Both the position numbers and the translations under genes were made by a program. Below the pieces are notes generated by a model, which did no database searches, was not told the DNA's origin, and worked only from the letters and a program-made list of their open reading frames with translations. From Candidatus Tayloriibacteriota bacterium (GTDB lineage: Bacteria; Patescibacteriota; Minisyncoccia; Phycocordibacterales; PALSA-1337), in NCBI GenBank assembly GCA_037130865.1, contig JBAXSG010000004.1:1-58879 (forward strand): a stretch of 58,879 bases of DNA. The letters are read 5' to 3'. Positions 16,904 through 58,624 of this stretch are shown piece after piece (the first letter of the stretch is position 1; every line of letters starts with the position of its first letter).

Positions 16904-17701
16904 ATGAAAAAACCTAAAACTTCTTGGGGTAATGTCGCTGGCTGGTATGACAATCTTCTGGAGAAATCTCCAGACTCATACCAAGAAAAAGTGATCCTAC
17001 CAAATCTTTTACGTATAGTAGATCCAAAACCAGGACAAAAAATACTAGACATTGCTTGTGGTCAGGGATATTTCAGTCGCATCCTAGCGAAAAATGGCGC
17101 ACAGGTGACTGGTTGTGATATTTCCTCTGAACTCATTGAGCTAGCAAAGAAAAATTCTCCAAAAGAGATAACATATTTTGTGGCGCCTGCGGAGAAGATT
17201 ATCGATCCTGATACAGCCAACGCAGAAAAAAGTTTCGATACAGCCATTATAGTACTAGCTATTCAAAATATAGAGGATATGCGAGCAGCTTTTTCCGAGA
17301 GTGCACGCCTTTTGAAATCTCCAGATTCGAAATTGGGAACAACCGGAAGACTCATTATCGTCATCAACCATCCAATCTTCAGAATTCCTCAAAACTCAAG
17401 TTGGGAATGGGACGCCAAGGCTCACAAACAATATCGCCGCATCGATTCTTATATGACTGACAATAAGATCAAGATAGATATGGCACCAGGTGGAGGCGCA
17501 AAAGGAAAAGCGCAGACTATTTCATTTCATAGACCTTTGCAAGGATATTTCAAAGCATTGAACTCTGCTGGATTCGCCGTGACTCGTCTAGAAGAATGGA
17601 TTTCTCATAAACAAAGTCAAGAAGGACCACGCGCGCAAGAAGAAGATCGCACCAGAAAAGAGATTCCATTGTTTATGTGCATAGAAGCGCGCAAGCTTTA
17701 G
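16904..17701 (+). CDS. Class I SAM-dependent methyltransferase
   Basis: ILDIACGQG motif I and GCDIS. Start trimmed to the ATG 6 nt after TATAAT. Confidence 0.9.
   Translation: MKKPKTSWGNVAGWYDNLLEKSPDSYQEKVILPNLLRIVDPKPGQKILDIACGQGYFSRILAKNGAQVTGCDISSELIELAKKNSPKEITYFVAPAEKIIDPDTANAEKSFDTAIIVLAIQNIEDMRAAFSESARLLKSPDSKLGTTGRLIIVINHPIFRIPQNSSWEWDAKAHKQYRRIDSYMTDNKIKIDMAPGGGAKGKAQTISFHRPLQGYFKALNSAGFAVTRLEEWISHKQSQEGPRAQEEDRTRKEIPLFMCIEARKL
17493..17513 (+). repeat. Heptamer array (3 degenerate units) inside the methyltransferase CDS
   Basis: gaggcgc aaaagga aaagcgc. Confidence 0.5.
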
Positions 17702-18912
17702 TTTGTATCTTTTATTGTCATTACTGGCCACAAAGCCAACAGAGAGATAATACCTAGAACTATAAAATTGTAAGGATGAAGTGTATCCGAATGTGTGAGA
17801 ATCATCACCAATATCGAACCTGCTGGAGCTATAAAATACGATATTGGTCGAGTCATACGGAACAATCCGAGCGCGGCGGAGTCTCTTGGTGAGACCGTCT
17901 TGAAGAAATATGTTTCTATCATAATCTCAGCAGCAGCGGCACCGATCCTTGTCATGAAAAGTAGAAGTGCCCACAAAGCTATATTTGGTATGTTCACAAA
18001 GCCGAGGATGATGGTAGATATTCCCATAACTACAAATCCGGCGGCCATAATCTCTTTCTCGCCATATTTTTTGTCAGCCAACATACCGAGAGGGTATTGA
18101 ATAAGAGAAAACGGTATAAGCATAATTACCAAAATGATACCGATTTCTTCCCAGCCGAATCCCATGACTTTATTTAAGTAGATAGGACTGTAGACTGTCA
18201 TCCATGCATAGAATATCTGCATGATTGTATTTGCCATAAACAGTTTTATCCAGTTGCTGTTGTGACTAATATGTTTGACTAGTTGCCATGGAGATAGATG
18301 AGTATAGTTTGGATCTTTGAAGCGTGGAAAATTTCTGTAAATAAGATACAAGAGAGGGAAGAGCATTGCCAGAGCCGCCACATATGTATTGTGATAGTTG
18401 CCGTTGCCATTTATTATCATACTGCCTATGAGAGGCGCGATGACCCAAGAGGCATTTAATGTCGCTGTGTACATTCCACGGACAGCTCCGACGTGTAATC
18501 CGTCAGTATAAGCTTCGAGGAATATATCTAGACAGAGTCCTATCACTGATATGACCGCCGTTTGCAATACGAACAATGTTGTCAGCATGATCGGCGATGT
18601 CTGTGTCACTAGTCCCCAGAAAAGTAATATTTGAATGACCACAGCCCACATAGCTATACGATAGTTTCCTAATTTACGGATGAGCCATGGTGACATAAGG
18701 AATGCTAGAACAGTCACAGCCGCACCCATAATGTATATGTAACTGATAGTCCTCTCGTCAGCGAATAGACCCAAGAAACTTGAGTTCGAATACATCGGGA
18801 TCACCAAGTGTAATGTGTATATGAAGCCGATGACAGCGATCGTATATATCACATGAGTCCTACTGTGAGGATGATGATTTGGATGCACGCTTTGTTTGAT
18901 GTCTTTGTCCAT
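17698..18912 (-). CDS. MFS transporter
   Basis: 12 TM segments, G.LADKKYGEK motif A-like loop. Confidence 0.88.
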   Translation of the reverse strand: MDKDIKQSVHPNHHPHSRTHVIYTIAVIGFIYTLHLVIPMYSNSSFLGLFADERTISYIYIMGAAVTVLAFLMSPWLIRKLGNYRIAMWAVVIQILLFWGLVTQTSPIMLTTLFVLQTAVISVIGLCLDIFLEAYTDGLHVGAVRGMYTATLNASWVIAPLIGSMIINGNGNYHNTYVAALAMLFPLLYLIYRNFPRFKDPNYTHLSPWQLVKHISHNSNWIKLFMANTIMQIFYAWMTVYSPIYLNKVMGFGWEEIGIILVIMLIPFSLIQYPLGMLADKKYGEKEIMAAGFVVMGISTIILGFVNIPNIALWALLLFMTRIGAAAAEIMIETYFFKTVSPRDSAALGLFRMTRPISYFIAPAGSILVMILTHSDTLHPYNFIVLGIISLLALWPVMTIKDTN

Positions 18913-18991
18913 GATGTTTAGGTATATGGAGATTATTATAGCAATTACATAAACCTAAAACCACTCGAGCTGGGAGGAGTCTTCATAACTT

Positions 18992-19231
18992 CTTGAACGT
19001 CCTGTATTGATTATTAAGGTCTATTACCAAGGAATGGTATTGGTGATTCCAATAACTAGTAAGAAAAAGAAAGATAAATATCGTGTGCCAATAATAATAA
19101 ACCATACATCATCATTTGCGGTGTTGTCTCAAGCGAAGACGATAAGTACGAAAAGGTTATCAAGAAGATACTTTAAGATTACAAAAGAGGACTTTGATAA
19201 TGTGGTCCGATTGTACAAGGAGCATATATGA
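18992..19231 (+). pseudogene. 5'-truncated MazF/PemK-family endoribonuclease
   Basis: ERPVLIIK...VIPITSK...AVLSQAKTISTKRL. An in-frame TAA lies just upstream of LLERPVL and the N-terminal strand is missing. Confidence 0.7.
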
Positions 19232-19313
19232 GAAAAACCCCACCATGAGGTGGAGTCTTTCGGGGCCCGAAGGCATTATGTTGCAAGTTTAGCAAAAGCC
19301 AGATAGTTGTCAA
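19232..19313 (-). ncRNA. Convergent promoter plus predicted ~50-nt RNA downstream of the mazF remnant
   Basis: Minus strand: TTGACA-16-TAAACT with extended TG, a GCC-TTCG-GGC hairpin, then a GACTCCACC/GGTGGGGTT stem with a U-tract. Confidence 0.55.
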
Positions 19314-19374
19314 ATCTGCTAGCCAGATGCACCGGCTTGCACGCTCTTAAAACACGTGCTATTCTATCCCCACA

Positions 19375-19641
19375 ATGAAAAAAGATATACATCCGAAAGA
19401 TTACCGTCTCGTCATATTCGCCGATAACTCCAGCGGTGCTAAATTCCTCATATCTTCAACTATAGCTACAAAAGAGACCATGAAATGGACCGATGGTAAG
19501 GATTATCCAGTATTCCATGTGGAAATCTCTAGCGCTTCACATCCTTTCTATACAAACCAAGAGAAGACCATAGACACTGCTGGTCGCGTAGAGAAGTTCA
19601 AATCTCGCCAAGCCAAGGCTAAGCCAAAGGCTGGTAAATAG
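19375..19641 (+). CDS. rpmE2: 50S ribosomal protein L31 type B (Zn-free)
   Basis: [22 protein letters not shown] and GRVEKF. No Cys. Confidence 0.95.
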
Positions 19642-20637: not shown

Positions 20638-20683
20638 TAAACTTGCGCTTTTACACGGCTTTTGATAAGCTACCACCTACATT

Positions 20684-21436: not shown

Positions 21437-21499
21437 GCCATAAGATTGCGTCCTTTCATTTACTTTATTATTAGCTCCTTTTAAATAATCAATAAAACT

Positions 21500-22096: not shown

Positions 22097-22486
22097 ATGT
22101 ATACAACTATTACAATCTTCTACGTTTCCTTGGTCGGCATCATCGTGCTGATCTTACTCAAGCGTCGTGAAGTTTTGACTGGAGAGCGCAGTATTGTATC
22201 AAGACTTGGTGAAGGAAGTGATCATGTCTTCGCTGCATTTTTCCGTGGTATTCGCCGCGGTATTTCTTATATAAACAAACACACTTTCATCGCTCTTGCT
22301 CAATGGCTAGCTTTTCATGTTTTGGTTCATGTACGTAAAGTGTATGTTGAGATCAAGCATATTTGGCTGCAGAATATCCACACTAGAAAAGTACTTGATA
22401 TGGTCCGTGGAAAAGGTGAGATTAGAAAGCATGGGGTGTCATTTTATTTGCGAAGGATTTCTGGAGAAGAAGAGAAGAAGAAGTAA
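22097..22486 (+). CDS. Hypothetical membrane protein
   Basis: N-terminal TM, abutting the tsf stop. Confidence 0.75.
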   Translation: MYTTITIFYVSLVGIIVLILLKRREVLTGERSIVSRLGEGSDHVFAAFFRGIRRGISYINKHTFIALAQWLAFHVLVHVRKVYVEIKHIWLQNIHTRKVLDMVRGKGEIRKHGVSFYLRRISGEEEKKK

Positions 22487-22488
22487 GT

Positions 22489-22516
22489 AAGGCGCAAGGT
22501 GAAAAGCGCAAAGCGC
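22489..22516 (+). repeat. Heptamer array (4 units), intergenic
   Basis: aaggcgc aaggtga aaagcgc aaagcgc. Confidence 0.85.
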
Positions 22517-22559
22517 GGGAGCTGGCTTTTTCATTAATTTTACGCTATATTCTTGTGGT

Positions 22560-22631
22560 GCCGGAGTAGCTCAATGGTAGAGCAACGCTTTTGTAAAGCG
22601 AAGGCTGGAGGTTCAATTCCTCTCTCCGGCT
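22560..22631 (+). tRNA. tRNA-Thr(TGT)
   Basis: GCCGGAG/CTCCGGC acceptor, loop TTTGTAA, GGTTCAATTCC. Confidence 0.93.
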
Positions 22632-22680
22632 CAGATTTCAGCAAGGATCGGTTAGGATTATTAGTTAATAACGATCAACA

Positions 22681-24529: not shown

Positions 24530-24538
24530 ATTATGTTT

Positions 24539-26015: not shown

Positions 26016-26759
26016 ATGGAAAACAAAGTCAGCCAGCAAACAGAGTCAGGCCACTTACACCCTATAACTTCGGTAATTCGTGAGATAACCACAATCTTCA
26101 ACAAGATCGGCTTTTCTGTGGCACAAGGTCCGGAACTAGAGGATGAATTCCATAACTTTGACGCCTTAAATGTTCCACCAGATCATCCAGCTCGTGATAT
26201 GCAAGATACTTTTTGGGTTGAGACAGGCGCAAAGCGCAAGGCGCAAGGCGCAGAAAAACTTGTTCTGCGCACACATACTTCTTCGGTGCAGATTCGCTTT
26301 ATGGAATCGCTCGCGAAAAAACAGCAGCCATTTAAGATAATAATTCCCGGAAAAGTCTATCGCAATGAAGCGACCGACGCGACTCACGAAGCGCAATTTT
26401 TCCAAATCGAAGGCCTTTATGTAGCTGAAAAAGTAAACATGGCCGAGCTCAAAGGAACACTAGAAAATTTCTTCAAGGAATTCCTAGGTCCAGAGGCTAA
26501 GATTCGTTTTCGTGCCAGCTTCTTCGGTTTCGTCGAACCTGGTGTAGAAGTCGATGTTTGGTACAAAGGCCGCTGGATGGAAATGTTCGGTGCCGGCCTT
26601 GTTCACCCGAGTGTTTTTGAAGCGGCTGGTTGGGACTCGAAAAAATGGCAAGGTTTCGCCTTCGGTGGCGGCGTAGATCGTCTCGTATTGCTTCGTTATG
26701 GAATAGACGATATCAGGCATCTTTATTCAGGGGATTTGAGGTTGATAAATCAGTTTTAA
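26016..26759 (+). CDS. pheS: Phenylalanine--tRNA ligase alpha subunit (lacks the N-terminal coiled coil)
   Basis: GHLHPI, NFDALN.P.DHPARDMQDTF, LRTHTS, YRNEATDATH and GFAFG.G.DRL. Confidence 0.97.
   Translation: MENKVSQQTESGHLHPITSVIREITTIFNKIGFSVAQGPELEDEFHNFDALNVPPDHPARDMQDTFWVETGAKRKAQGAEKLVLRTHTSSVQIRFMESLAKKQQPFKIIIPGKVYRNEATDATHEAQFFQIEGLYVAEKVNMAELKGTLENFFKEFLGPEAKIRFRASFFGFVEPGVEVDVWYKGRWMEMFGAGLVHPSVFEAAGWDSKKWQGFAFGGGVDRLVLLRYGIDDIRHLYSGDLRLINQF
26224..26251 (+). repeat. Heptamer array (4 units) inside pheS
   Basis: caggcgc aaagcgc aaggcgc aaggcgc, encoding GAKRKAQGA. Confidence 0.9.
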
Positions 26760-26774: not shown

Positions 26775-28724
26775 ATGAAAATCTCCTACAACTGGCTACA
26801 ACAATATTTCGATAAACCACTTCCGAAGGCTCACGACCTTGCGGAACTTATCAATTCACACGTCTTCGAAATAGAATCGGTTATAGAAATGAAAAGTGAA
26901 TGGCGCAAGGCGCAAACTGACACAGTCTTCGATGTGAAGGTCTTACCTGATCGTGCGCATTATGCGTTGTGCCACAAAGGTGTCGCTAGGGAAGTCCGAG
27001 CTATTACGGGTATGGAGATGAAAAATATTGCCAATGTTAAGATCACCGTCGGTGAGGCGATCAAACCAGTTGAAGTGAAAGTTACAGAATCCAAACTTTG
27101 TCGCCGTTATATAGCTCGCAGGATCTCTGGTGTGAATGTCACTGATTCCCCAGCTTGGCTTCGTGAGAAACTTGAAGCTATCGATGCGCGTTCTATCAAC
27201 ACCATCGTCGATGCGACGAACTATATAATGTTCGATATTGGCCAGCCACTGCACGCTTTCGATGCTGCAAAAGTGAAAGGGGTGATTACGGTTCGCTTGG
27301 CGAAAAAGGGAGAAAAGATTGAACTCTTGGATGCGCGTGTGCTCGAGTTGAACGAGACAGACTTGGTAATTGCCGATGATGAAGGTCCTCTAGCTATTGC
27401 TGGAGTGAAAGGTGGTCGTCGTGCAGAAATCTCTGCGACCACGAAGGATATCATCTTGGAATCAGCCAATTTCAATCCAGTTTCCGTACGCAGAACTTCC
27501 ACCCGACTCAATATACGAAATGATTCATCGAAGAGATTCGAAAATGAAATCATTCCTGAATTGGCGGAAGAAGCGATGAGCAGAGTGACGGCGCTTATCA
27601 TTAAACTTTCGCAAGAGGCAAATATTGGTACGATTAAAGTCAGCGCCACAACAGATATATTTTCGACTCCAACAAAGCCTTGGACAGTTTCGGTCACTTC
27701 GGATTTTATCTCGGAAAAATTGGGTGCAAATATAACCAACGCTGATTTCCAGGATATCCTTAAACGCTATGATTGTGTGGTGAAAGGTGTGTCAGATATC
27801 ACTCCACCATTGGATCGTCTTGATCTCAAAATCCCTGAAGACTTTGTGGACGAAGTGGCTAGAGTAAATGGTTATGAAGCATTGGAAGCTATTTTACCAG
27901 CTGAATTGCCAGCCAAAGCTGCATCTCAGATTCATGATGATGTTACTTTCTATTGGTCTGAAAAAGTGAAGAATACCTTGGTCGGACTAGGCTTTTCTGA
28001 GGCACTGCTTTATTCGTTAGTACAAAAAGGTTTTTATGAGATTACATATCCATTGGCGAGTGATAAGAGTTCTCTACGTGAATCGATTGTGCCGAAGATG
28101 AATGACACGCTTACTACAAATGCCCTCAATGCCGATTTATTGGGCCTCGATATTATAAAAATGTTCGAGATAGGTAAGGTCTTTCCGAAAGAAGGTGAGA
28201 AGACTGTTTTGTGTATTGGTGTAAAAAATGTAAAAAAGTCCAAGAAGAAAGAACCGGAGATTCTGAAAGAAGTTTTGGCCGAGTTGAAAAAGACGCTTGG
28301 CGTCGAACTCACACCGGAGAAGATAACCGACAATGTTACAGAGATAGATCTCGGTTCTTTGTTCAGCAAAATGAAAGCTGGTCTTATCGACGATCTTCAT
28401 TTCCAAGCTTTGCCACGTGATCAGAAGTATCATCCATTTTCTCCATATCCTTTTATCACACGCGACATCGCCGTGTTTGTGCCAGAAAATGTTCTAGGTG
28501 ACGGTGTTTGGAATTCCGTGAAGCAGGGAATACAAGAAGCCGGCGCTGAAGGATTACTTGTGCGCGGTGCTCTGTTCGATGTCTTCAAGAAAGAAGGAAA
28601 AGTCTCATATGCATATCGCTTAGTATTCCAATCCTACGAAAAAACTTTGACTGATACTGAGGTAAATACGATTATGGAAAAAGTCTATCAAGAAATCCGC
28701 GAAAAAGATTGGGAAGTGAGGTAA
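26775..28724 (+). CDS. pheT: Phenylalanine--tRNA ligase beta subunit (no B2 OB-fold)
   Basis: MKISYNWL, VDATNY.M...GQPLHAFD, RLDL...ED.VDEVAR..GY and C-terminal FDX-ACB (SPYPFITRDIA). Confidence 0.95.
   Translation: MKISYNWLQQYFDKPLPKAHDLAELINSHVFEIESVIEMKSEWRKAQTDTVFDVKVLPDRAHYALCHKGVAREVRAITGMEMKNIANVKITVGEAIKPVEVKVTESKLCRRYIARRISGVNVTDSPAWLREKLEAIDARSINTIVDATNYIMFDIGQPLHAFDAAKVKGVITVRLAKKGEKIELLDARVLELNETDLVIADDEGPLAIAGVKGGRRAEISATTKDIILESANFNPVSVRRTSTRLNIRNDSSKRFENEIIPELAEEAMSRVTALIIKLSQEANIGTIKVSATTDIFSTPTKPWTVSVTSDFISEKLGANITNADFQDILKRYDCVVKGVSDITPPLDRLDLKIPEDFVDEVARVNGYEALEAILPAELPAKAASQIHDDVTFYWSEKVKNTLVGLGFSEALLYSLVQKGFYEITYPLASDKSSLRESIVPKMNDTLTTNALNADLLGLDIIKMFEIGKVFPKEGEKTVLCIGVKNVKKSKKKEPEILKEVLAELKKTLGVELTPEKITDNVTEIDLGSLFSKMKAGLIDDLHFQALPRDQKYHPFSPYPFITRDIAVFVPENVLGDGVWNSVKQGIQEAGAEGLLVRGALFDVFKKEGKVSYAYRLVFQSYEKTLTDTEVNTIMEKVYQEIREKDWEVR
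26893..26913 (+). repeat. Heptamer array (3 units) inside pheT
   Basis: aaagtga atggcgc aaggcgc, encoding KSEWRKA. Confidence 0.7.
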
Positions 28725-43530: not shown

Positions 43531-43869
43531 TCAAACCCCCAGTTTTTTACGTAAACTCGATTCCATGCGCTCCATCTTCGTGCCATGATCATAACCTTTC
43601 AAATGCACGCAGCCATGGAGGAATAGGAATTCAAGGAAATTCTCTGGTGTACGAGCAAACTTTTTCGCTTCTTTCTTTGCTTCGCTTCGCGAAATATAAA
43701 TCTCACCTTCATTTTTTGAAAGAGGGAAGCTTAAGATATCCGTAGCCTTGTTCTTATCTCTGTAAATGAGGTTGAGCTTGCGCATCTTCTCTGGCGTCGT
43801 AAACGAAAAAGACAGCGCATAGCTCTTGCCAAGCGCCGCTTCTTTTATTTTCTTGAATTTTTTTAGCAT
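43531..43869 (-). CDS. ybeY: rRNA maturation endoribonuclease YbeY
   Basis: LN..YR.K...TDILSF, GEIYI and HG.VHL.GYDH. Confidence 0.93.
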   Translation of the reverse strand: MLKKFKKIKEAALGKSYALSFSFTTPEKMRKLNLIYRDKNKATDILSFPLSKNEGEIYISRSEAKKEAKKFARTPENFLEFLFLHGCVHLKGYDHGTKMERMESSLRKKLGV

Positions 43870-43882
43870 TTTGCGATTGCTT

Positions 43883-43910
43883 GCGCTTTTTCTCTTGCGC
43901 CTTGCACTTC
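43883..43910 (-). repeat. Heptamer array (4 units), between rpsU and ybeY
   Basis: Minus strand: gaagtgc aaggcgc aagagaa aaagcgc. Confidence 0.75.
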
Positions 43911-43912
43911 TT

Positions 43913-44155
43913 TTATCTGCGTCTCTTTGTTTCTATAGGAGCTTTGCCGAGCTTGATGAGTTCTGCTGTTGCTGCTCTACGAGCCAATGTCTTCAATGTC
44001 TTCATCTTGATCTTGTAGTGTGACTGTACGCGGCTGTTATAACGGAGGCTACGCTTGCGAGGAATAACGCCAGAGCTTTGTACTTTGCGGCTGAAACGGC
44101 GCAGCATGCTGATGCCGTTCTCGTTAGGATTTCTGCTGATTTCTACGTTTATCAT
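43913..44155 (-). CDS. rpsU: 30S ribosomal protein S21-like
   Basis: VEI.R..NE....MLRRFSRKVQSSG, highly basic. Confidence 0.75.
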   Translation of the reverse strand: MINVEISRNPNENGISMLRRFSRKVQSSGVIPRKRSLRYNSRVQSHYKIKMKTLKTLARRAATAELIKLGKAPIETKRRR

Positions 44156-44221
44156 TGTGGAGAGTATATTAGCACGGGTTTTATAGGCATGCAAGTGGGG
44201 TTTTCTATTCTTAGTCATTTA

Positions 44222-44411: not shown

Positions 44412-45638
44412 TTACTTCCAATACTGCGCCTCTATCTTCTTCATGTGCTTCGTCAGCTGATCCAGAGGAATGATTTCCTGAGCATGAGTCTCTGTGCGGC
44501 GGATGATTATAGTTTTCTCGACAGCCTCCTTCTTTCCCATAACGATGACATATGGAGTGTGATGTCTCTCAACAGATGATACTTGTGCACCGAGGCGATC
44601 TTTAGCAAGCGACAAGAATAACGGAATCTTCGCCAGGCGTAGTATTTCTATGATTGCTAGCGACATGAGTTTCGATTCGGGACTCAATTGCATGAAGGAA
44701 CTCAACGGCTTCTTTGATTTTGCGAGAGGTTTACGCAAAGCGGCGACATTGTTTTTTATGAGAAGGGAAATACCTACACCTTGAATATCACGCTTCATTC
44801 CTGCGCGCTTAGCTAGACTGTTATATCGAACTCCGATAGCAAGGATCTTCTGTTCGGCATTTACGATAGTGAATATAGTTTCTGTACAATATTTACGATT
44901 GCCAATGAGTCCGTTATTTATAGTATAAGGAATATTCAATGCCTCCAAGTATTCCAATACCTCTTCCAAGTGTCTGCGGCTCTGTTCGGAAAGGAAGTCT
45001 ATAGACTTTGGTGCAGCTGCGTTCAGTGCTTTGCAATCTGCACGATGGGATGAGAGTAGTTCAAAAGGATCACGCTTCAACACTTGGCGACATTCTGGAG
45101 TCATCTCATTTATATTTTTGCGATAATAAGCCGTCAACTCACGACTGAATCTGGTTATGGAATCGCGATCTCCGATCGAATTTATCTCGACTACAGTGTC
45201 AGTATATTTTTCTTCAGACAGCATAGCGCGAGCTGTTTGAATAAGTGTAGCCTCGGCGATACTTCCGGATGCACCCAAGATTTCCAAGTCAGCGTATCTC
45301 TGACCACTCTTTTTGAGCGGGCTTCTGCAAGTATCTTTGAAGTAGAGCATCACTGGCTGCGCGTGGTTGTGCATGTTCTGCTCATGATAAGTTCGTATGA
45401 AAGCGATTTTCTCTTCAGCGTGTAGAGGAAAGCGCGCATGATTTTCTGTTTCATCATCGACGAAGTCTCCATCGAGGATATCTTTCGCGGCTTTTATGTC
45501 GGCGTCATTTACTGTCGGGCTCTTCATTGGCATGAATCCATAGTAAAGAGCGATCTCACCGATCTTGTCTAAGTGATCATGAAATATGAATTTCGACTTA
45601 GAGCTTGATTTGGATTTTTTGCGAGGTTTGTTTTTCAT
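44412..45638 (-). CDS. Histidyl-tRNA synthetase-like protein with degenerate catalytic motifs
   Basis: INSIG, insertion-domain segment (C......PFELLS), L.....E.L.IPY..N..L and C-terminal anticodon-binding domain. Motifs 2 and 3 are eroded. Confidence 0.75.
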   Translation of the reverse strand: MKNKPRKKSKSSSKSKFIFHDHLDKIGEIALYYGFMPMKSPTVNDADIKAAKDILDGDFVDDETENHARFPLHAEEKIAFIRTYHEQNMHNHAQPVMLYFKDTCRSPLKKSGQRYADLEILGASGSIAEATLIQTARAMLSEEKYTDTVVEINSIGDRDSITRFSRELTAYYRKNINEMTPECRQVLKRDPFELLSSHRADCKALNAAAPKSIDFLSEQSRRHLEEVLEYLEALNIPYTINNGLIGNRKYCTETIFTIVNAEQKILAIGVRYNSLAKRAGMKRDIQGVGISLLIKNNVAALRKPLAKSKKPLSSFMQLSPESKLMSLAIIEILRLAKIPLFLSLAKDRLGAQVSSVERHHTPYVIVMGKKEAVEKTIIIRRTETHAQEIIPLDQLTKHMKKIEAQYWK

Positions 45639-45666
45639 GTTTTTGTTTTGCTCTATTTATTATCTA

Positions 45667-46311
45667 TTAATAAGTCGTCGATGATGCTGATCTGTATTCT
45701 CCAGGAAATATCGCTACTGATGTTGGTGGTAAGAGACGAATGAGTGGTCTGCCGGTTATAAAATGTGATTCGAGCGGACCCCAGACTCTGGAGTCGGAGC
45801 TTTGTGAGCGATTGTCTCCCATGACGAAATATTGTGTATTGGTCAAAGTTATATTTGAATTGTCGTGTGCAGCATGATCAGCTTCGATATAAGGTTCGGC
45901 GAGAGTAGTGCTCTGCGTGCTTGAAGCGCCAGTAACACTAGTTTTTTCCGTGACTGTGACTATTCCGTCTTTAATGTTCATCGTTTCGCCTGGAAGTCCA
46001 ATGATACGCTTTATATAGTAGACGCTCGGATCACCGGGATATTGGAAGACGACAACATCTCCACGTTGTGGTTTCTCAAAACGATATGAGAGACGATCGA
46101 CTATAAGGAATTGACCAGTTGAGAAGGTTGGATCCATGGAGGCACCATTTACTATAAATGGTTCAGCGATGAAGTATCTTATTGGTAGAGATATAAGTAC
46201 GGCGATGACGATGACTTTCACCCATTCCCATATAGTTTTCCAGAAAGTAGATGAAGGCGTGGCAATACTTGGCACAAGATTTTCTTTATCATTGTGCGGG
46301 GTTGAATCCAT
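45667..46311 (-). CDS. lepB: Signal peptidase I
   Basis: GASMDPT (Ser), YIKRIIGLPG (Lys) and GDNR..S.DSR. Confidence 0.95.
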   Translation of the reverse strand: MDSTPHNDKENLVPSIATPSSTFWKTIWEWVKVIVIAVLISLPIRYFIAEPFIVNGASMDPTFSTGQFLIVDRLSYRFEKPQRGDVVVFQYPGDPSVYYIKRIIGLPGETMNIKDGIVTVTEKTSVTGASSTQSTTLAEPYIEADHAAHDNSNITLTNTQYFVMGDNRSQSSDSRVWGPLESHFITGRPLIRLLPPTSVAIFPGEYRSASSTTY

Positions 46312-49929: not shown

Positions 49930-49954
49930 GATACTATCAATCTACAAACTAGTG

Positions 49955-50493: not shown

Positions 50494-53046
50494 ATGCCCA
50501 AGAAATCAGAAACAAATAAAGACAAAGATTCAGGCTCAAACGAGCCTGTTGTTGCAGGTGCTCCTGCACGCGCCGCTGGTGCCGGTGTCATAAACCGCAG
50601 CATTACGACCGAGATGCGTGAGTCATTCCTCGACTATGCGATGTCAGTTATCACAGATCGTGCACTTCCAGATGTTCGCGATGGACTCAAACCTGTGCAT
50701 CGTCGCATACTTTACGCCATGCACGAGAAAGGTCTTACTTATCAAGCAAAATTCCGCAAGTCCGCTGTTCCAGTCTCTGACGCCATGGGAAGTTACCACC
50801 CGCACGGCGATGCCGCGATTTACGAGTCGCTGGTGAAGATGGCTCAGCCATTTACGATGCGTAATCCGCTTATTCAGGGTCAAGGTAACTTCGGTACAGT
50901 TGATGGTGATCCAGCCGCTGCTATGCGTTATACCGAAGCTCGCATGTCTCGTCTTTCAAGCGAGCTCTTGCGTGATATTGGCAAGAACACCGTGGACTTC
51001 AGACCGAACTATGACGGAACAAAGAAAGAGCCGGTTGTTTTGCCGACTGCTGTTCCAAACCTTCTTTTAAATGGAACGCTGGGTATCGCTGTCGGTATGG
51101 CGACGAACATTCCTCCACATAATTTACGTGAAGTCGTGGATGCTACAACTCACATGATCGACAATCCAGATGCTACAGCCGCCGATCTTTTTGGCTTTAT
51201 AAAAGGCCCGGATTTTCCACTTGGCGCAGTCGCTTATGGCGAGAAAGATATACATCATGCATATACGACCGGTCGCGGCAGCATAACTGTTCGCGGTGAA
51301 GCCGAGATCGTGGAAGACAAGAAGGGTCAATACCAGATTATCATCACTTCGATTCCATTTCGTGTTAATAAGTCTGAGCTCATCATCAAGATCGCCGACT
51401 TGGTGCGTGACAAGGTTGTCGAAGGTGTACGCGCTCTCCGTGATGAATCCGACAAGGATATACGTATCGCTATAGATTTGAAGCAAGGTTCATTCCCAGA
51501 GAAAGTACTCAATCTGATCTACAAGCACACACAGCTTGAAGAAGCTTTCCATGTGAACATGGTTGCACTGGTTGATGGCGTCCCTCATACACTTTCGCTC
51601 AAGACTATTCTTGAAGAATTTGTGGAACATCGTATAGAAGTCATTCGTCGTCGTACTCAGTTCGACCTCACAGCCGCTGAAGATCGTGAGCATATTTTGC
51701 TTGGTCTGAAGAAAGCACTGGATCATATCGATGAAATCATCACTCTTATTCGTGCATCGAAAGACGGAATAGAAGCTCATGCCAACTTGATGAAGAAGTT
51801 CAAGTTCTCTGACAAACAAGCAACTGCTATTTGTGAAATGAGACTTGTTAAGCTTGCTGGACTCGAACGCAAGAAAGTCCTCGATGAACTCAAGGCTGTA
51901 GAAGATTTGATCGCCGATCTGAAGAGTATTCTTGCTAGTGACAAGAAAGTTCGTGGCATTATCAAAACCGAACTCACTGAGATTCGCGAAAGATATGGCA
52001 ATGACCGTCGCACCAAGATTGTTAAACATGGAGTGAAAGAATTCAGTGCCGAAGATCTGATAGCCGACGAAGAGTCTGTGCTCATTCTTACAAAAGGTGG
52101 CTATATCAAGCGCACTGATCCTGCTGAATATCGTAAGCAGAAGCGCGGTGGCGTTGGAGTTGTTGACCTCGATACAAAGGAGGAGGATTTTATCACGCAC
52201 CTTATATATGCCTCGACTCACAATGATCTTCTATTCTTCACTGACAAAGGCAAGGCTTATCAGATAAAGATGTTCGAAATCCCAGAAGGTAAGCGTGCCA
52301 CAAAAGGAAAGTCGATTATGAACTTCTTGTCGCTTGCAGAAGGTGAGCGTGTCACTTCTATTTTGCCAATGCCGAAGAATAAAAAAGATGCTGAAGGTTT
52401 GGATCTGATGATGGTCACGAAAAATGGTACTGGTAAAAAAACTTCCGCTAAACATTTCAAGGATGTACGCCGTTCCGGTCTGATCGCTATTACACTAGAT
52501 GCTGGTGATGAGTTGATTTCAGCCAGCTTCATTTCAAAAAATGACGAAGTCATGATCGCTACACGTGAAGGTCAATCTATCCGTTTCAAAGAGAGCGATG
52601 TTCGCGAAATGGGTCGCAACGCCGCCGGCGTTCGTGTTATTCGCTTAGCAGAAGGCGCAAAGCGCAAAGTGAAAGGCGCAGAAGAAAAGGCACAAAGTGG
52701 TGATGCCGTTATCTCCGCTGACATAGTTTCCAAAGACGCTCAGAATCCATGCCTCTTCGTGATGGGTGCAAATGGTTATGGCAAGAAAACCAAACTCTCA
52801 GAATACAAGACACAAAATCGTGGTGGTTCAGGTATCCTCACCATGAATGTAACGCCGAAGACCGGTTCGCTCATGGCCGCCAAGGTCGTCACAGAGACAG
52901 ATGAAGAGATTGTAGCAATGTCCAAGAAGAGCCAAGTCATCCGCGTCGACATAAAGGAGATTCCTGCTTTGAGTCGTGCTACACAAGGTGTTCGTGTCAT
53001 GAAGCTTCGTGAAGGAGATGAATTGGCGAGTTTGATTTGTTTATAA
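50494..53046 (+). CDS. gyrA: DNA gyrase subunit A
   Basis: [29 protein letters not shown] and GyrA-box QKRGGVG. Confidence 0.97.
52652..52700 (+). repeat. Heptamer array (7 units) inside gyrA
   Basis: aaggcgc aaagcgc aaagtga aaggcgc agaagaa aaggcac aaagtgg. Confidence 0.9.
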
Positions 53047-53065
53047 AAATAATACCAATCATTTT

Positions 53066-53857: not shown

Positions 53858-53964
53858 GTCGACTAACTACCACTGATATCTTTGTGTCTATATGATTATT
53901 TTGTCCCCACCTCACGCCTGAAACAGGCCTTTAACCGCGCCTACTATTGCGCTATAATACATCC

Positions 53965-54483
53965 ATGTTTTCTGATCCATCCGCCAATATTTCTAAACTC
54001 GGACTTGCCGATGGTATGAAAGTTGTGGACCTCGGTGCCGGTTCTGGTTTCTATACTCTAGAAGCCGCCAAGCGTGTCGGTGCAAGCGGTCGTGTCTACG
54101 CCGTGGAAGTTCAGAAAGATTTGCTGGAACGCATTCGATCAAATGGAAAAACTCAAGGATTGAGCAATATCGAAGTTATCTGGGGCAACGCCGAGAAGAT
54201 AGGTGGTACAAAGGTAAAGGACGCTTTGGCCGACAGGGTCATAGCTTCGAACATTCTATTTCAGATAGAAAAGCCGGAGGATTTTGCTCTGGAGATAAAG
54301 CGTATCTTGAAACCAGGCGGTAAGGTCTTGATCGTAGACTGGAGCGATGTCAGCCCACTTGGACCGAAGACACCTTTTTCAGCAGTCAGAGCTCAGGCTC
54401 TCTTCGAGAAATCCGGTTTCAAACTAGATCAGACATTTGGTGCTGGAGATCATCATTATGGAATAGTTTTTGTGCGGACCTAG
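53965..54483 (+). CDS. Class I SAM-dependent methyltransferase
   Basis: VVDLGAGSG, VYAVE and RILKPGG..LIVDW. Confidence 0.9.
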   Translation: MFSDPSANISKLGLADGMKVVDLGAGSGFYTLEAAKRVGASGRVYAVEVQKDLLERIRSNGKTQGLSNIEVIWGNAEKIGGTKVKDALADRVIASNILFQIEKPEDFALEIKRILKPGGKVLIVDWSDVSPLGPKTPFSAVRAQALFEKSGFKLDQTFGAGDHHYGIVFVRT

Positions 54484-54485
54484 TT

Positions 54486-54506
54486 GCGCTCTGCGCCTTT
54501 CACCTT
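54486..54506 (-). repeat. Heptamer array (3 units), intergenic
   Basis: Minus strand: aaggtga aaggcgc agagcgc. Confidence 0.75.
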
Positions 54507-54519
54507 TAAACTTAATCAT

Positions 54520-55830
54520 ATGGATTCCAAATTCAGTAAATTTCAAATAATAACCTTGGTAGCTTTCGGCCTTTTTATCGTCATTGGCGTAGCATCATTC
54601 TCTTTATACAAAGGTAATTCGTCATCGAGTACAGCATTACCGATGATAACGGTCTGGGGTACATTTCCGAAAGCTTCATTTGATAAATATCTATCAAATA
54701 TGAGCAATACATCGGGGACACGAATAGATGTAAGTTATGTAGAAAAGTCACAAGATCAATTCTCTTTGGACTTTATTTCGGCTTTGGCACGCAGCCAAGG
54801 ACCTGATGCCATACTTATACCAAGTGAGCTTCTTTTGCCACACAAGGACAAGTTGTACACCATTCCTTTTACCACCATGACTCAGTACGATTTCTCAAAC
54901 ACTTATATTGGTGAGGCTGCCATGTATATCAACAAAGACGGCATTACTGGTCTTCCATTTATAATAGATCCTCTGGTCATGTACTGGAATGTAGATATGT
55001 TTGACGCTGCGGGTCTAGCTACTTATCCTAGATATTGGGATGATTTTACTGCATTGAACAAGACTTTGACTGTAAAAGACAAGAACGGCAATGTCAGAAA
55101 AAGTGCCATCGCTATGGGGCAGTTCGGTAATATTGTCAATGCCCGCGAGATACTCGGTACACTCTTTATGCAAGCCGGAAATCCTGTAACAACACAGAAC
55201 AGCGCCGGATCAGTTTTTTCGAATATAAAAAATGGTGCAACCGTCAGTCCGGTTTCGGCTATAAGATTTTTCACACAATTTGTAAATCCTTCCAGCGCCA
55301 ATTATTCTTGGAATAACAGCATGTCTGATTCTAAGTCGGCTTTCTTGTCTGGAACATTGGCTACTTACTTCGGTTTTGCCTCAGAACTGGCCGATATCAA
55401 GATTAAGAATCCGAACTTGAGGTTTGATGTAGCTCTTATGCCAAGTCCTAAGGTCGGTGGTTCGAGTTCTACATATGGTCATATGTACGGTTTCTCTATA
55501 GTTCGTACATCACAAAATATCAATGCTGCTCTTCAGATCATATCGACACTTTCTATGCCACAGTATCTTGGCGAGCTATCAGCTGCTCTATATCTACCAA
55601 GTGTGCGTCGCGATATTATCGCCGCTGGATCAAATGATCCTTATATAACTCTGTTCAATAAAGCCGCACTAGTCTCAAAAGCATGGCTAGATTATGATCC
55701 AACAAGTACAAGTCAGATATTCAGTGAAATGATACAATCTTTTACAAGCGGTCGTAGCACCATTGAGCAGGCTATACAAAATGCCGGCGATAAGATGGAT
55801 GCTTCTTTGGGTAAAGCCATAATACAATGA
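54520..55830 (+). CDS. Extracellular solute-binding protein (SBP_bac_1-like), membrane-anchored
   Basis: ITVWG, GPD, LPF..DPLVMYWN.DMF..AG...P..WDD and F.SG..A.YFG. Confidence 0.85.
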   Translation: MDSKFSKFQIITLVAFGLFIVIGVASFSLYKGNSSSSTALPMITVWGTFPKASFDKYLSNMSNTSGTRIDVSYVEKSQDQFSLDFISALARSQGPDAILIPSELLLPHKDKLYTIPFTTMTQYDFSNTYIGEAAMYINKDGITGLPFIIDPLVMYWNVDMFDAAGLATYPRYWDDFTALNKTLTVKDKNGNVRKSAIAMGQFGNIVNAREILGTLFMQAGNPVTTQNSAGSVFSNIKNGATVSPVSAIRFFTQFVNPSSANYSWNNSMSDSKSAFLSGTLATYFGFASELADIKIKNPNLRFDVALMPSPKVGGSSSTYGHMYGFSIVRTSQNINAALQIISTLSMPQYLGELSAALYLPSVRRDIIAAGSNDPYITLFNKAALVSKAWLDYDPTSTSQIFSEMIQSFTSGRSTIEQAIQNAGDKMDASLGKAIIQ

Positions 55831-56330
55831 AAAATAAAATAATCATTATAGGTTTAGCTTTTTTGGTTTTGAGTTCTGTAAATGTAAGCGCACAAACTAT
55901 TGCTCCAAATGCCAACGAAAACCCAAGTCAGACAGACTTCAAACTGGTCAATTGTGATGGGCCGGCATTACCAACCAATGGTACTGTCAAATCAGAGTTT
56001 TTAAAGACATGGTCAGCACAAACCGGCAAGGTTCCAGGCGACTACAAAGCTTGTGACTTCAATGGTGCACTCGCGCAAGTCCAGCACCTCATGAATATTG
56101 CTATTATCTTAGGAGTCTTGGCTGCTATTCTTCTATTTTCCTTTGCAGGATTCAAACTGGTCTCGGCTTCATTTACTGGAAAAGTTGCAGATGTTGATAG
56201 AGCCAAGGATATATTCCAAAAGGTCGCGATAGGTTTTATAATAATGTTAGTTGCATGGTTCGTCGTTTATCAGATAATCTCATGGCTGTCTGGCGGTTCA
56301 TCGGCAGGAACGGCTTTGTTGAGTAAATAA
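55827..56330 (+). CDS. TrbC/VirB2-like pilin
   Basis: Signal peptide, Cys pair, two TMs joined by ...RAKDIF..VAIG. Confidence 0.7.
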   Translation: MKNKIIIIGLAFLVLSSVNVSAQTIAPNANENPSQTDFKLVNCDGPALPTNGTVKSEFLKTWSAQTGKVPGDYKACDFNGALAQVQHLMNIAIILGVLAAILLFSFAGFKLVSASFTGKVADVDRAKDIFQKVAIGFIIMLVAWFVVYQIISWLSGGSSAGTALLSK

Positions 56331-56331
56331 T

Positions 56332-57141
56332 ATGAAGACAAAATTTATTTTTTCAGGAATAGTCGCGCTCGCACTGTTAGCTGTGGTGACTATAAAGCCA
56401 GTCGGAGTGAAAGCCAGTGCGTATAGTGATTGTACAGACCTAATCTCCGGAACAGATTTCAGCTCATGTAGAGGCCTTGAAGGTGACCCAAGCATTACAA
56501 CAGACCCTCTACCAGATCCAGCTTATCAAACATGTATAGATGCTGGTTATTATGCTGATCAATGTAATGGTGGTCAGAATCCAGCCAATACACCAGGTTC
56601 TAGTGGTGATCAAGGGAGCGGTTCTACACCAGTTGCTCCTGCCCAATCAACCCCTAGTACTTTTAATCCTTCTAATATAGATCCATATGGAGTTAATGTC
56701 GGTACTGTTCAGCAAAATAAAAACGGCACCACCTATGGTTCCGGTGTCGCTCCTATCAGTAATTCCGGCGTAAGCTCTACTAAAGGCCTAGCACCTTATG
56801 CTACAGCTATTGTCCAGACGGGAACATTCACTATAAAAAATCCTCTTCAAGCCAATTCTGTCAGTGAACTAGTCCAGACCGCTTCACAGATATTTGCATA
56901 TGTAGTGGTATTGATCGGAGTGATGGCTCTTATTTGGACTGGCCTACTATATGTCCTTGCTCAAGGTAATTCAGAGAAACTTACACAATTGAAGAAACAG
57001 CTACTCTGGATTGTGGTAGGTATAGCCATAGTTATAGGTGCAAGGATCATTATAAACATAGTGGTTACAACCCTTTCAAAGTCGGGGGCTGTCAATCAAA
57101 GTATTATTAATAACGCCTATAATGGTCTAGAAGTTAAATAA
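56332..57141 (+). CDS. TrbC/VirB2-like pilin with a long Cys/low-complexity N-terminal domain
   Basis: IKNPL...; IWTGLLYVLAQGNSEKL...KK.LLW.VVG. Confidence 0.75.
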   Translation: MKTKFIFSGIVALALLAVVTIKPVGVKASAYSDCTDLISGTDFSSCRGLEGDPSITTDPLPDPAYQTCIDAGYYADQCNGGQNPANTPGSSGDQGSGSTPVAPAQSTPSTFNPSNIDPYGVNVGTVQQNKNGTTYGSGVAPISNSGVSSTKGLAPYATAIVQTGTFTIKNPLQANSVSELVQTASQIFAYVVVLIGVMALIWTGLLYVLAQGNSEKLTQLKKQLLWIVVGIAIVIGARIIINIVVTTLSKSGAVNQSIINNAYNGLEVK

Positions 57142-57163
57142 AAAGGGCATAGCCAACAAAATT

Positions 57164-57775
57164 ATGAAAATGAAAACAAATACAAAAAAAGTGAGTATTG
57201 TTTCTTCGGTACTACTGACAATTTTATTTATAGGACTAACAATAACAACAGTTAGAGCACAGAACCAATATTCCGGTGCAGATAATCCTGGTGCAAACCC
57301 AGCCGATGTAACTGGTGCCAATGTCAACGGAGTCGATTATGGCGCCACCACTGTAGTGTCTAGCCCTACCGCAGAAACTCAATCTACGGGCGACATCAAC
57401 GCCGGTAGTCAAGTTCTTCCACCAGCAGGCGGAAGTTTACTCAATATAAGTGGCAGTTTCAACTATGATAACGGTGGTTCGGGTAAAGATCTTAGATACC
57501 TCATAGCCGTGATCATCAGCTATCTAAATCAAGCAATGTTCCTGATTGTCGGTGTAGCGGTCGTTATGTTCGTATTCTATGTTGTTAAGTATTTCATAAA
57601 GCCAGCAGATGGTGCAGAGAGAAAAGAAGCTGGTACATATGTTATGTACAGCGTCCTTGGTTTCTTCATCATCATATCGTTGTGGGGTATAGTCAATATA
57701 GTGAAAAATACATTCAAACTGGACTCTAGTTCAACGAGCTTATCCGAATTCCAGAATATATTCCCATCAAGGTAA
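57164..57775 (+). CDS. TrbC/VirB2-like pilin
   Basis: C-terminal two-TM unit VVKYF.....ERKEAG..MYS..GFFII.SLWG. Confidence 0.75.
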   Translation: MKMKTNTKKVSIVSSVLLTILFIGLTITTVRAQNQYSGADNPGANPADVTGANVNGVDYGATTVVSSPTAETQSTGDINAGSQVLPPAGGSLLNISGSFNYDNGGSGKDLRYLIAVIISYLNQAMFLIVGVAVVMFVFYVVKYFIKPADGAERKEAGTYVMYSVLGFFIIISLWGIVNIVKNTFKLDSSSTSLSEFQNIFPSR

Positions 57776-57868
57776 TAATCCCCAGAACCCACCATTTACT
57801 TATCAGAGTGTGTTATAATGTCGTCTAGCAAGTAATATTATTAATTATTAGTCATTATCATAAAGAAA

Positions 57869-58258
57869 ATGAAAAAATTCATCACAGTTCTCGCAGTCTT
57901 GGCTCCTTCTATAGCTATGGCCGATACTATAGTAAATGCCGATAACCTTGTCTTTACATTGACAAGATTGGGCAATGTCCTTATCGGTCTTCTTATCGCT
58001 GCAGCCGTCATATTTATCATATGGCATGCCGTTATGTTCATCTTCAAGGCTTCAGATCCAGAAGGTCGCTCAGCACACAGAACAGGAGTTTTGTGGGGTA
58101 TTGTTGGTCTAGCTATCATATTGTCTATCTGGGGTTTGGTAGGAATTCTTACAAATACATTCTCAACAACAAACAATCCAAATCAAGTCGGAACACCTCC
58201 TGTGATTCCAACATATGCGCCAAATATTCAGAACAGTAGAGCAACATATTCTTATTAA
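57869..58258 (+). CDS. TrbC/VirB2-like pilin
   Basis: Signal peptide (APSIAMA), FI....DPE.R......LWGIVGL.II.SIWG. Confidence 0.75.
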   Translation: MKKFITVLAVLAPSIAMADTIVNADNLVFTLTRLGNVLIGLLIAAAVIFIIWHAVMFIFKASDPEGRSAHRTGVLWGIVGLAIILSIWGLVGILTNTFSTTNNPNQVGTPPVIPTYAPNIQNSRATYSY

Positions 58259-58261
58259 AAG

Positions 58262-58549
58262 ATGTTTAGCATCGTCTCTATAGCTCACGCCGCTGTCGAT
58301 ATGACACAGTTTAGTACTGTGGTCAGTCCCATCATCAGCAACATCGTCAACCCAGTGGTTTGGTTGATGTTCGCTGTGGCTACAGTTGTGTTTGTCTACG
58401 GAGTCTTACAGATGGTTATAAAAGGTAATGATCCAGAGGCACGCAAGACTGGCCAGATGAGCATACTTTATGGAGTCATCGGAATGTTCATAATGTTCTC
58501 AGCTTGGGGCATCATATATCTGATCTCAAATACAGTGAAGGGGATTTAA
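58262..58549 (+). CDS. TrbC/VirB2-like pilin
   Basis: IAHA, YG...VI.G.DPEARKTG...ILYG.IG.FIMFSAWG. Confidence 0.78.
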   Translation: MFSIVSIAHAAVDMTQFSTVVSPIISNIVNPVVWLMFAVATVVFVYGVLQMVIKGNDPEARKTGQMSILYGVIGMFIMFSAWGIIYLISNTVKGI

Positions 58550-58551
58550 GT

Positions 58552-58624
58552 TAGGCGCAAGCGATTCCTCAAATCGTCCTGGGGAGGGCAAAGCGCAAGG
58601 TGCAAGGTGAAAAGCGCAAGGCGC
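58552..58624 (+). repeat. Heptamer array (5-6 units plus one detached unit), intergenic
   Basis: taggcgc ... ggagggc aaagcgc aaggtgc aaggtga aaagcgc aaggcgc. Confidence 0.9.

Follow-up and report, generated by a model that had tools for sequence, protein, structure and literature searches.

Tandem repeats with a 7-nt unit, dispersed through the genome, are known from several bacterial lineages. The STRR arrays of cyanobacteria are lineage-specific dispersed tandem heptanucleotides of variable length, found mainly between genes. The GGGNATC-type repeats of Xanthomonas and Nostoc (PMC4692102) also have a 7-nt unit, have spread genome-wide with a preference for four units, lie mostly between co-oriented open reading frames (ORFs) near stop or start codons, vary strongly in length and sequence at the same sites of related species, and are of unknown function. 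The TAACTGA repeats of Beggiatoaceae, cyanobacteria and Bacteroidetes (PMC4679880) comprise 2–6 direct heptamer copies at many loci, some of them overlapping the stop codon of the upstream gene, and directly precede start codons in settings poor in ribosome-binding sites; the same report summarizes a survey of long simple sequence repeats with units of 5–11 nt, for which polymerase slippage was proposed. Here we describe heptamer arrays in Candidatus Tayloriibacteriota bacterium, a member of the Patescibacteria, with a 58,879-nt stretch of its genome (contig JBAXSG010000004.1 of assembly GCA_037130865.1; 'the window' below) as the point of reference. These arrays are a lineage-specific, fast-evolving family of dispersed heptanucleotide repeats with an AAAG/AAGG core. 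What sets it apart is that most copies are translated insertions in essential nucleic-acid enzymes, together with their strict orientation and frame, a shared tail, concerted dialects and the host phylum. Our literature search, with supplementary files outside its scope, found no paper describing such arrays in the Patescibacteria or candidate phyla radiation.

The window is one contig (C26) among the 31 of an assembly with 677,924 bases and 93.9% completeness, called G000 here; other G numbers denote relatives of the same genus, L numbers loci and P numbers proteins. A first-pass annotation had placed degenerate heptamer arrays at eight loci of the window, and we recovered all eight at the same positions or within a few bases of them, three in degenerate form. 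It had also predicted that the arrays exceed what base composition would give, and this was borne out: two consecutive units of AA[AG]G[CT]G[CA] match 13 times in the window, against a mean of 0.08 and a maximum of 1 in 100 dinucleotide-preserving shuffles, and Tandem Repeats Finder reported period-7 arrays at 26225, 52655 and 58588. Genome-wide, 38 arrays with at least two perfect units are spread over 13 of the 31 contigs, and an nhmmer profile search with a model built from G000 copies yielded 46 copies at E ≤ 0.05. A head-to-tail 7-nt unit at many unlinked loci, far above chance, is a feature shared with the dispersed heptanucleotide class.

The repeat is a discrete element rather than an array of variable length. 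When the 38 arrays were extended unit by unit with at most one mismatch, 26 proved to have four units, two had five, two had three and eight had two, so that the range of 3–7 units first given was too broad. The standard G000 element is AAGGCGC-AAAGCGC-AAGGCGC-AAGGCGC (28 nt). Its unit positions differ in make-up: at unit 3, 29 of the 46 copies read AAGGCGC, and AAGGTGA stands at unit 2 in 11 of 46 and at unit 3 in only one of 46, with the caveat that the positions were taken from the profile alignment, which itself favours such a difference. Directly after unit 4, six unrelated genes carry the same non-periodic 14-nt tail, AAGTGAATCGCAAG (at most two mismatches), for which there are about four further matches elsewhere on the two strands of G000. 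The coding form therefore spans 42 nt, or 14 codons, reading x-G-A-K-R-K-A-Q-G-A-S-E-S-Q. Single units are not enriched outside arrays (AAGGCGC 86 versus 83 expected; AAAGCGC 89 versus 86), and copies separated by under 1 kb resemble each other somewhat more closely than other pairs do (5.3 versus 7.0 mismatches; n = 7 pairs, permutation p = 0.036). Folding of the arrays against shuffled sequences revealed no excess structure (z −0.75 to −1.4), and an array from the relative G062 had a minimum free energy of 0.

Position, strand and frame are all strongly constrained. ORFs were called heuristically, and 27 of the 46 copies lie inside long ones, all 27 on the sense strand; this count treats two copies scored as coding-antisense (C30 2613 and C5 3006) as intergenic, as they lie exactly between a stop and a start. 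By reading frame, 23 coding copies are in the main frame, four in a second open frame and none in the frame where the tail gives TGA, although one copy scored as frame-0 coding (C9 4601) may lie upstream of the true start. A TGA in unit 2, which is a stop in the main frame, is found in none of the 23 main-frame copies, three of the four other-frame copies and 11 of the 19 remaining copies (p = 1.8e-5). Selection thus keeps the coding copies open, an argument for their being translated. Outside long ORFs, which is 11.9% of the sequence, there are 17 of the 46 copies (p = 1e-5), and the spacers that hold them run between co-directional genes. At five operon junctions the array makes up approximately the whole spacer, lying −2 to +3 nt from the upstream stop and −3 to +4 nt from the next start. 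In total, 44–45 of the 46 copies are in mRNA sense orientation, the exception being the copy at 54486–54513 of the window, and 14–15 of the 17 non-coding copies are in sense too. Since 37 of 46 copies sit on the G-rich strand, replication strand was considered as the cause and set aside: the copies at C23 7155, C23 7612, C29 34524 and window 43883 take the direction of their genes where the local skew runs the other way. As skew and gene direction are confounded, we make no claim about replication strand.

We then compared G000 with its relatives, which are draft metagenome-assembled genomes (MAGs) of varying quality (G062 is 66% complete, G060 100%). The exact three-unit pattern of G000 matches 24 times in G000 itself and only once or twice, with other unit types, in three of 40 relatives. 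A generic four-unit AARGNNN pattern is matched in 31 of 61 genomes, and in 10 of the 61 it exceeds the reversed-pattern control by at least three. Across the genus the AAAG core is kept and the suffix differs per lineage, giving each its own dialect: AAAGTTG, GTGG, GTAG and GAGA in G062 (117 matches versus 15 in the control, in arrays of 5–10 units), AAAGGCA and AAGGGCA in G060 (10 arrays versus none in the control), AAAGTTC and GTGC in G006, AAAGCTC in G066, and AAAGAGC and GATT in G055. G062 is among the closest relatives (GyrA 90–95% and UvrB 91% identical). When its arrays were placed on G000, with orthology judged by BLAST of 400-nt flanks, eight fell at shared sites, eight were specific to G062 and at least three were unresolved. 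The shared sites include loops of the SMC-type protein, a class I tRNA synthetase and RsmH, as well as the spacers at window 22489, 43883 and 54486. Here the flanks are 70–88% identical, and the arrays are written in each genome's own dialect and encode different peptides, those of G062 being K/E-rich. Arrays of G062 often terminate in AAAGGCGCAAG, which is the G000 unit. Since orthologous arrays resemble the other arrays of their own genome, the family undergoes concerted evolution. The earlier argument that local slippage alone is insufficient is upheld by these own-genome unit types at orthologous sites, by the shared non-periodic tail and by the unequal unit positions. The suggestion that the insertions supply nucleic-acid enzymes with basic peptides is weakened by the different, K/E-rich peptides of the sister genome at these sites. 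In G015, three of these spacers lack an array, and the UvrB linker carries GGCGC...AGTGAATC remnants.

The coding arrays had been predicted to be in-frame insertions in variable loops, and comparison with both orthologues and solved structures confirms that they are insertions in loops and linkers of conserved proteins. Relative to solved structures, there is an 18-aa insertion in the inter-domain linker of UvrB and a 10-aa insertion in PheS. In G000 the GyrA loop segment has 32 aa; 17 of 30 genus genomes have 16–18 aa there, and seven of the 30, as well as G062, have 25 aa. G000 thus has 7 aa more than four close relatives and 15 aa more than the genus basal form; an AAAGTCG-type array of similar length stands in this loop in G018 and G053. 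In PheS, the loop after the conserved DMQDTFW motif consists of 6–10 residues in most relatives and holds arrays of different dialects in G000, L192, G066, G006 and several remoter MAGs (74 of 80 genome loci matched the loop pattern; for L055, L058, L059 and L063 the heptamer period was assessed by eye). G000 PheS is 7 aa longer than that of L039. Turnover at this site is rapid: a homologue 97% identical outside the loop has an 8-aa gap instead of the array, while the array is kept in an 89% identical homologue and on the syntenic contig L192 (the only one of 80 metagenome loci close enough for use), and is present in P0006. Public genomes with related PheS are labelled as Paceibacterota, Parcubacteria-type or Patescibacteria MAGs, and the sequencing runs that contain the stretch as lake or freshwater metagenomes. 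Four such runs were compared with the stretch as assembled contigs, with the uncovered parts in runs X4 and X5 left uninterpreted; in a contig of run X6, approximately 91% identical, the pheS array is short of 24 nt and the pheT array of 15 nt. The UvrB linker exceeds the basal form by 12 aa in G000, 8 in G062, 12 in G015 and 7 in G042, the linker pattern having covered 26 of 30 genomes (G052, G004, G019 and G056 were missed). Copy number and sequence thus vary among relatives at one and the same locus. Insertion lengths in multiples of about 21 nt were expected, and four comparisons do give exactly 7 aa (GyrA with close relatives, PheS with L039, the methyltransferase with L192, and G042 UvrB with the basal form), but differences of 2, 4, 5, 8 and 12 aa also occur.

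These loops and linkers show other irregularities. In G007, G066, G058, G017, G023, G041 and others, the UvrB match splits in two within one open frame, at residues ~430–440 (the array site) or at ~220, which suggests, from the alignments, much longer insertions at the same linkers. In the G000 UvrB gene (C28:38290-40413), a second 7-aa insertion relative to solved UvrB, AVASKTE at residues ~515–522, may be an old, decayed array. A different type of in-frame insertion, ~45–100 nt long with an internal inverted repeat and encoding ...SPSPSLSPK..., was seen in L360 (the UvrB linker of G043), in L040 and P0010–P0012 (the PheS loop) and in L025 (the GyrA loop of G010). By eye, its DNA is approximately 85–90% alike between UvrB of one species and PheS of another, and it is reminiscent of in-frame palindromic elements.

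Which genes carry copies is far from random. Among replication and repair proteins, identified by Pfam, the hosts are RecJ, a UvrD-type helicase, DNA polymerase I, NAD-ligase, RecG, UvrA, UvrB, UvrC, an SMC-type protein, primase, RNase HII and GyrA; among proteins acting on tRNA, rRNA or the ribosome they are two class I tRNA synthetases (one with three copies), PheS, PheT, RsmH, MnmA (two copies), Dus, TrmD and ribosomal protein L25. The others are a family-2 glycosyltransferase, a DHO-dehydrogenase-like protein (two copies) and a SAM methyltransferase. In agreement with the first-pass annotation, which took the hosts to be mostly nucleic-acid enzymes, 21 of the 24 host proteins act on DNA or RNA, with all six nucleotide excision repair components among them. 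By comparison, 10–11 of 30 length-weighted random ORFs fall in this class (Fisher p 8e-5 to 2e-4), with classes hand-assigned from Pfam names and with four array-bearing genes and one ambiguous TraG-like protein within the control. Once the arrays are subtracted, host genes do not exceed controls in length (p = 0.63) and have a higher K+R+E content (0.212 versus 0.172; p = 3e-4), and the density of AARG seeds in host genes is 1.2-fold above controls (p = 0.017). Seed density was considered as the cause of the gene-class bias and set aside, as a 1.2-fold difference is too weak alone. This bias is the least explained of our observations. Among the genes flanking non-coding copies are those for L10|L12, IF-2|RbfA, S3, Obg, Tgt, YbeY, MnmA|NrdR-like, PilB|PilC and GAPDH.

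The synthetase with three copies is itself unusual, as a 1229-aa class I enzyme (C23:31240-34929) with a histidine-phosphatase domain (His_Phos_1) inserted at residues 537–700.

Set against the known systems, the family shares much with the heptanucleotide repeats and departs from each of them. A fixed four-unit block with a shared tail, inserted in frame, is not known from the STRR arrays. The enrichment in non-coding DNA between co-oriented genes is shared, yet 27 of 46 copies are coding, unlike in the described heptanucleotide families. Compared with the Xanthomonas and Nostoc repeats (PMC4692102), these coding copies are in frame, the units have only GG, no structure is predicted, the suffix of the unit is particular to each species and the host is a 0.7-Mb member of the Patescibacteria. 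The TAACTGA repeats (PMC4679880) have stops in all forward frames, their coding copies are rare, reversed and peripheral, and an identical unit recurs across phyla, whereas here the forward orientation is translatable and used in conserved enzymes, and units differ between sister species. The tandem repeats of Borgs (PMC9879509) are fast-evolving and make new disordered protein segments as well as intergenic arrays; those are reported to arise independently at each locus, whereas here one family occupies ~46 loci with a 7-nt unit that is not a multiple of three. As for in-frame insertion, the family is like the Rickettsia palindromic elements, but it is a 28–42-nt direct repeat with no significant fold. 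The Rickettsia elements are 100–150 nt long and palindromic, and lie in frame in essential protein genes at surface-exposed sites, with the function of the protein kept.

How might such a family spread and stay uniform? We favour, at about an even chance, a combination of slippage and array-to-array copying in a background without mismatch repair, filtered by selection. Arrays would lengthen and shorten by replication slippage in 7-nt steps, and the missing MutS/MutL mismatch repair would remove the normal brake on this process. MutL was not found in G000, MutS was found in none of the 60 other genus genomes, and the sole MutS match in G000 lies on a stray 1.6-kb contig of 62% GC (C21). This is one of five small contigs without arrays (C14, C18, C19, C21 and C22; 1.6–3.9 kb, 59–64% GC) that are probably foreign to the genome, as G000 overall and all 13 array-bearing contigs have a GC content of ~43%. 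Loss of MutS and MutL raises the instability of simple repeats and relaxes the barrier to recombination between diverged repeats. One array could also serve as the source for another, with ectopic gene conversion or template switching acting on their short homologous blocks. This copying could spread the family into A/G-rich, lysine-coding loops and stop-codon-proximal spacers, and would keep the copies of one genome alike, producing a lineage dialect. In genes, selection would leave sense-strand, stop-free, in-frame copies in tolerant surface loops, where they would encode a flexible charged peptide such as GAKRKAQGASESQ. In spacers, the purine-rich, unstructured sense orientation may be tolerated at stop-to-start junctions in an organism that uses no Shine–Dalgarno (SD) sequence. 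Slippage as an explanation of heptanucleotide repeats is already published, being cited in two reports (PMC4679880, PMC4692102).

Several points weigh against slippage plus copying. Anatomy, insertions, turnover, concerted evolution, the marks of selection and the absence of MutS have been shown, whereas slippage, conversion and the causes of the orientation and gene-class biases are inferred, the case for slippage being drawn from assembled contigs, which are blind to length variation within populations. Some length differences (2, 4, 5, 8 and 12 aa) are not multiples of 21 nt. Blocks of 28–42 nt are short for RecA-type recombination, and for gene conversion there are only indirect signs. The lack of MutS is genus-wide and so cannot explain why approximately 50 of the 61 genomes have few or no arrays. 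The bias towards nucleic-acid enzymes (p ~1e-4) and the presence of all six excision-repair proteins are not predicted, and host-gene charge and seed density account for the class bias only in part. The sense orientation of most non-coding copies requires an extra assumption. Finally, the number of reverse transcriptase (RT) genes is weakly correlated with array load.

The orientation and the junctions raise the question of a role in translation. A poly-SD reading was rejected for G000, which makes no use of SD sequences and has an atypical 16S 3' fragment, though the units of some relatives are SD-like. No purine-rich signal is present upstream of 392 G000 starts (GGAG in 4%; G at 9–14% from −12 to −1); these regions are A/T-rich and G-poor, with enrichment of the words TAAT, ATAA and TATA. 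In the only 16S 3' fragment found (C13, − strand, ~540 nt from the contig end), the last helix is followed by extra sequence at the point where the canonical tail is expected, and the Rfam SSU model gave no 16S match in the assembly. The arrays could instead be a selected cis-acting RNA signal, an unstructured purine-rich platform for an RNA-binding protein (S1-, KH-, Csp- or CsrA-like) or for the SD-less ribosome, which would link translation on the two sides of a stop-to-start junction and make the repair and tRNA genes a post-transcriptional regulon, the dialect of each lineage being set by coevolution with the reader. We consider this unlikely on balance, though it could coexist with slippage plus copying. 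It would make sense of the mRNA orientation of nearly all copies, some of them against local GC skew, of the spacers filled by arrays at five junctions in a genome without SD signals, of the lack of predicted structure, of the AAAG core that is constant across dialects and of the fact that all six excision-repair genes and many tRNA and ribosome genes carry or adjoin a copy; a like role has been proposed for TAACTGA repeats upstream of start codons (PMC4679880). Yet no candidate reader protein was identified, close relatives lack arrays at the same junctions and loops with no visible compensation, and most genomes of the genus do with few or none. A regulatory element within coding loops would also be unusual, and the signal does not by itself explain the spread of copies to new sites. 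A broader possibility, which we hold to be improbable, is a trans-acting system that continually rewrites a species-specific heptamer 'word' into the sense strand of information-processing genes, be it through templated synthesis or through a molecular drive, for example biased uptake and recombination. The arrays would then be its footprint rather than passive repeats, and its targets would include tRNA synthetases and modifiers, replication genes, the full set of six excision-repair genes, and the junctions of ribosomal operons. In its templated form, a dedicated writer would act at AAAG-like seeds, either as an RT (diversity-generating retroelement (DGR)-, retron- or telomerase-like) or as another polymerase/nuclease pair, much as the first-pass annotation had envisaged. 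G000 does encode four RTs in 678 kb (on C1, C23, C9 and C6), its own dialect overwrites orthologous arrays, and the PheS arrays of G066 and G006 start at the AAA Lys codon after DMQDTFW. At least three RT genes are present in five of six array-rich genomes compared with 10 of 55 others (p = 0.0026), and RT number correlates weakly with array count across 61 genomes (Spearman 0.34, or 0.20 after control subtraction), but these tests overstate the association because relatives are not independent; G060 has 10 arrays and no RT, and nine genomes with at least three RTs have no array excess. All four RTs are 320–360 aa long; they come nearest to group II intron RTs, with scores that stay under the family cut-off. 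The C1 locus (C1:43868-45708) combines a 360-aa RT gene with a template/variable pair of 122-nt repeats (45137-45258 and 45587-45708) that differ at 16 positions, 15 of them adenines of the RT strand, and is therefore an ordinary DGR; its repeat pair is unrelated to the arrays, and heptamer variation is not limited to adenines. No repeat pair was found near the RTs of C23, C9 and C6, the last two being on short or cut contigs. No array lies within 1 kb of any of the four RT genes, and no array-like template was found next to one. Telomerase-like addition also fits poorly with arrays that are internal and mostly of exactly four units rather than open-ended, and for which no template was found. 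A dedicated writer is thus quite doubtful, and the arrays are no evidence for a new repeat-writing enzyme.

Molecular drive by DNA uptake can be weighed against the uptake sequences (DUS) of Neisseriaceae and Pasteurellaceae. These (PMC2817400, PMC2346458) share species dialects, a bias in orientation and frame and a preference for poorly conserved residues with the arrays, but they are single motifs of 9–12 nt, numbering hundreds to thousands per genome and arising by substitution, compared with ~46 tandem inserted copies here. A species-specific uptake or recombination signal (DUS/USS- or Chi-like), spread by biased uptake and homologous recombination, would account for dialects with a constant core, for concerted evolution at orthologous sites, and for one orientation, preferred frames and poorly conserved sites. 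The lean of the arrays to genome-maintenance genes would be in keeping with it as well, and such a lean has been reported for uptake sequences too. Known uptake sequences occur approximately once per kb. The density here is ~1 per 15 kb, single units are not over-represented outside arrays, the arrays are insertions, the non-coding copies are strand-biased too, and a tail common to unrelated loci is not something that uptake bias would explain. ComEC, DprA and type IV pilus genes are present in G000, but they do not discriminate, because ComEC and DprA are also found in 10–11 of 14 control genomes. Taken together, an uptake signal seems very improbable. We give less credence still to independent local slippage at each array, with likeness due to base composition or to convergent selection for a charged peptide. 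In many bacteria no long simple repeat is commoner than the heptanucleotide type, as reported from earlier work (PMC4679880), and the arrays do lie in lysine- and glutamate-rich loops. However, an independent local origin is already contradicted by the shuffles and by the same four-unit order, unit-position make-up and 14-nt tail at unrelated loci; moreover, non-coding copies have the sequence in common, and the sister genome encodes other peptides at the same sites.

Whatever the mechanism, a tiny streamlined Patescibacteria genome tolerates one repeat family in loops of GyrA, Pol I, ligase, primase, UvrABCD, RecG, RecJ, SMC and tRNA synthetases and modifiers, with copies gained and lost between genomes a few percent apart. 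This makes it a natural system for the spread and uniformity of short repeats without a recognizable mobility gene, for the birth of disordered segments in essential enzymes, and for the replacement of SD-based coupling at operon junctions. The lineage-specific insertions and deletions in the markers GyrA, PheS, UvrB and tRNA synthetases affect alignments and trees of the phylum, and the arrays could be used as fine-scale strain markers.

The eight loci of the window illustrate the range of forms. Two in-frame copies are well preserved: that of pheS (26224–26262, + strand), with four units at 26224–26251 and encoding TGAKRKAQGAEK, and that of the gyrA C-terminal domain (52652–52700, + strand), with four units at 52652–52679 followed by degenerate units to ~52700. 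The copy in pheT (26890–26916, + strand) is partial, with 2–3 units in frame 0 encoding KSEWRKAQ (nhmmer E 0.012). In the SAM-methyltransferase gene (16826–17701), a degenerate remnant at 17494–17514 (+ strand; nhmmer E 5.7) encodes GGAKGKAQ; in the syntenic metagenome contig L192, these codons hold a clear array that is 7 aa longer. Among the spacers, the four-unit copy at 22489–22516 (+ strand) begins 2 nt past the stop of the ORF at 22097–22486, upstream of tRNA-Thr; the site is empty in L192 and holds an array of at least eight units in the dialect of G062 in that genome. A degenerate array at 43870–43912 (− strand) fills the entire spacer between a small basic-protein gene (43913–44218) and ybeY (43531–43869), with an nhmmer match at 43894–43907 (− strand, E 0.31); G062 has a 10-unit array here, and G015, G018 and G001 have none. 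Each of the degenerate loci (methyltransferase, pheT and this spacer) has a counterpart in a relative where the array is longer or the bases are missing. The copy at 54486–54513 (− strand) has three units (54486–54506) between a methyltransferase gene (53947–54483) and a solute-binding-protein gene (54520–55830) and is antisense to both; G062 has a six-unit array at this site, also antisense, and G015 lacks one. The last array (58552–58624, + strand) is intergenic, with a partial unit at ~58552 and then five units at 58590–58624.

Directly 3' of these five units, at 58625–58668, a perfect 17-nt inverted repeat is followed by a T-run. This hairpin looks like an intrinsic terminator, separate from the arrays (fold z = −4.7 for 58580–58660). 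Beyond it lies a 58-nt direct repeat (58667–58724 and 58822–58879; 98% identical, 155 nt spacing), the second copy of which is cut by the contig end; it gave no Rfam match at E ≤ 0.1 and no tRNA call. Elsewhere in G000, the FtsH gene (C8:6100-9342) is interrupted by an intein, in which Pfam recognizes Intein_splicing and the LAGLIDADG endonuclease domain LAGLIDADG_3.

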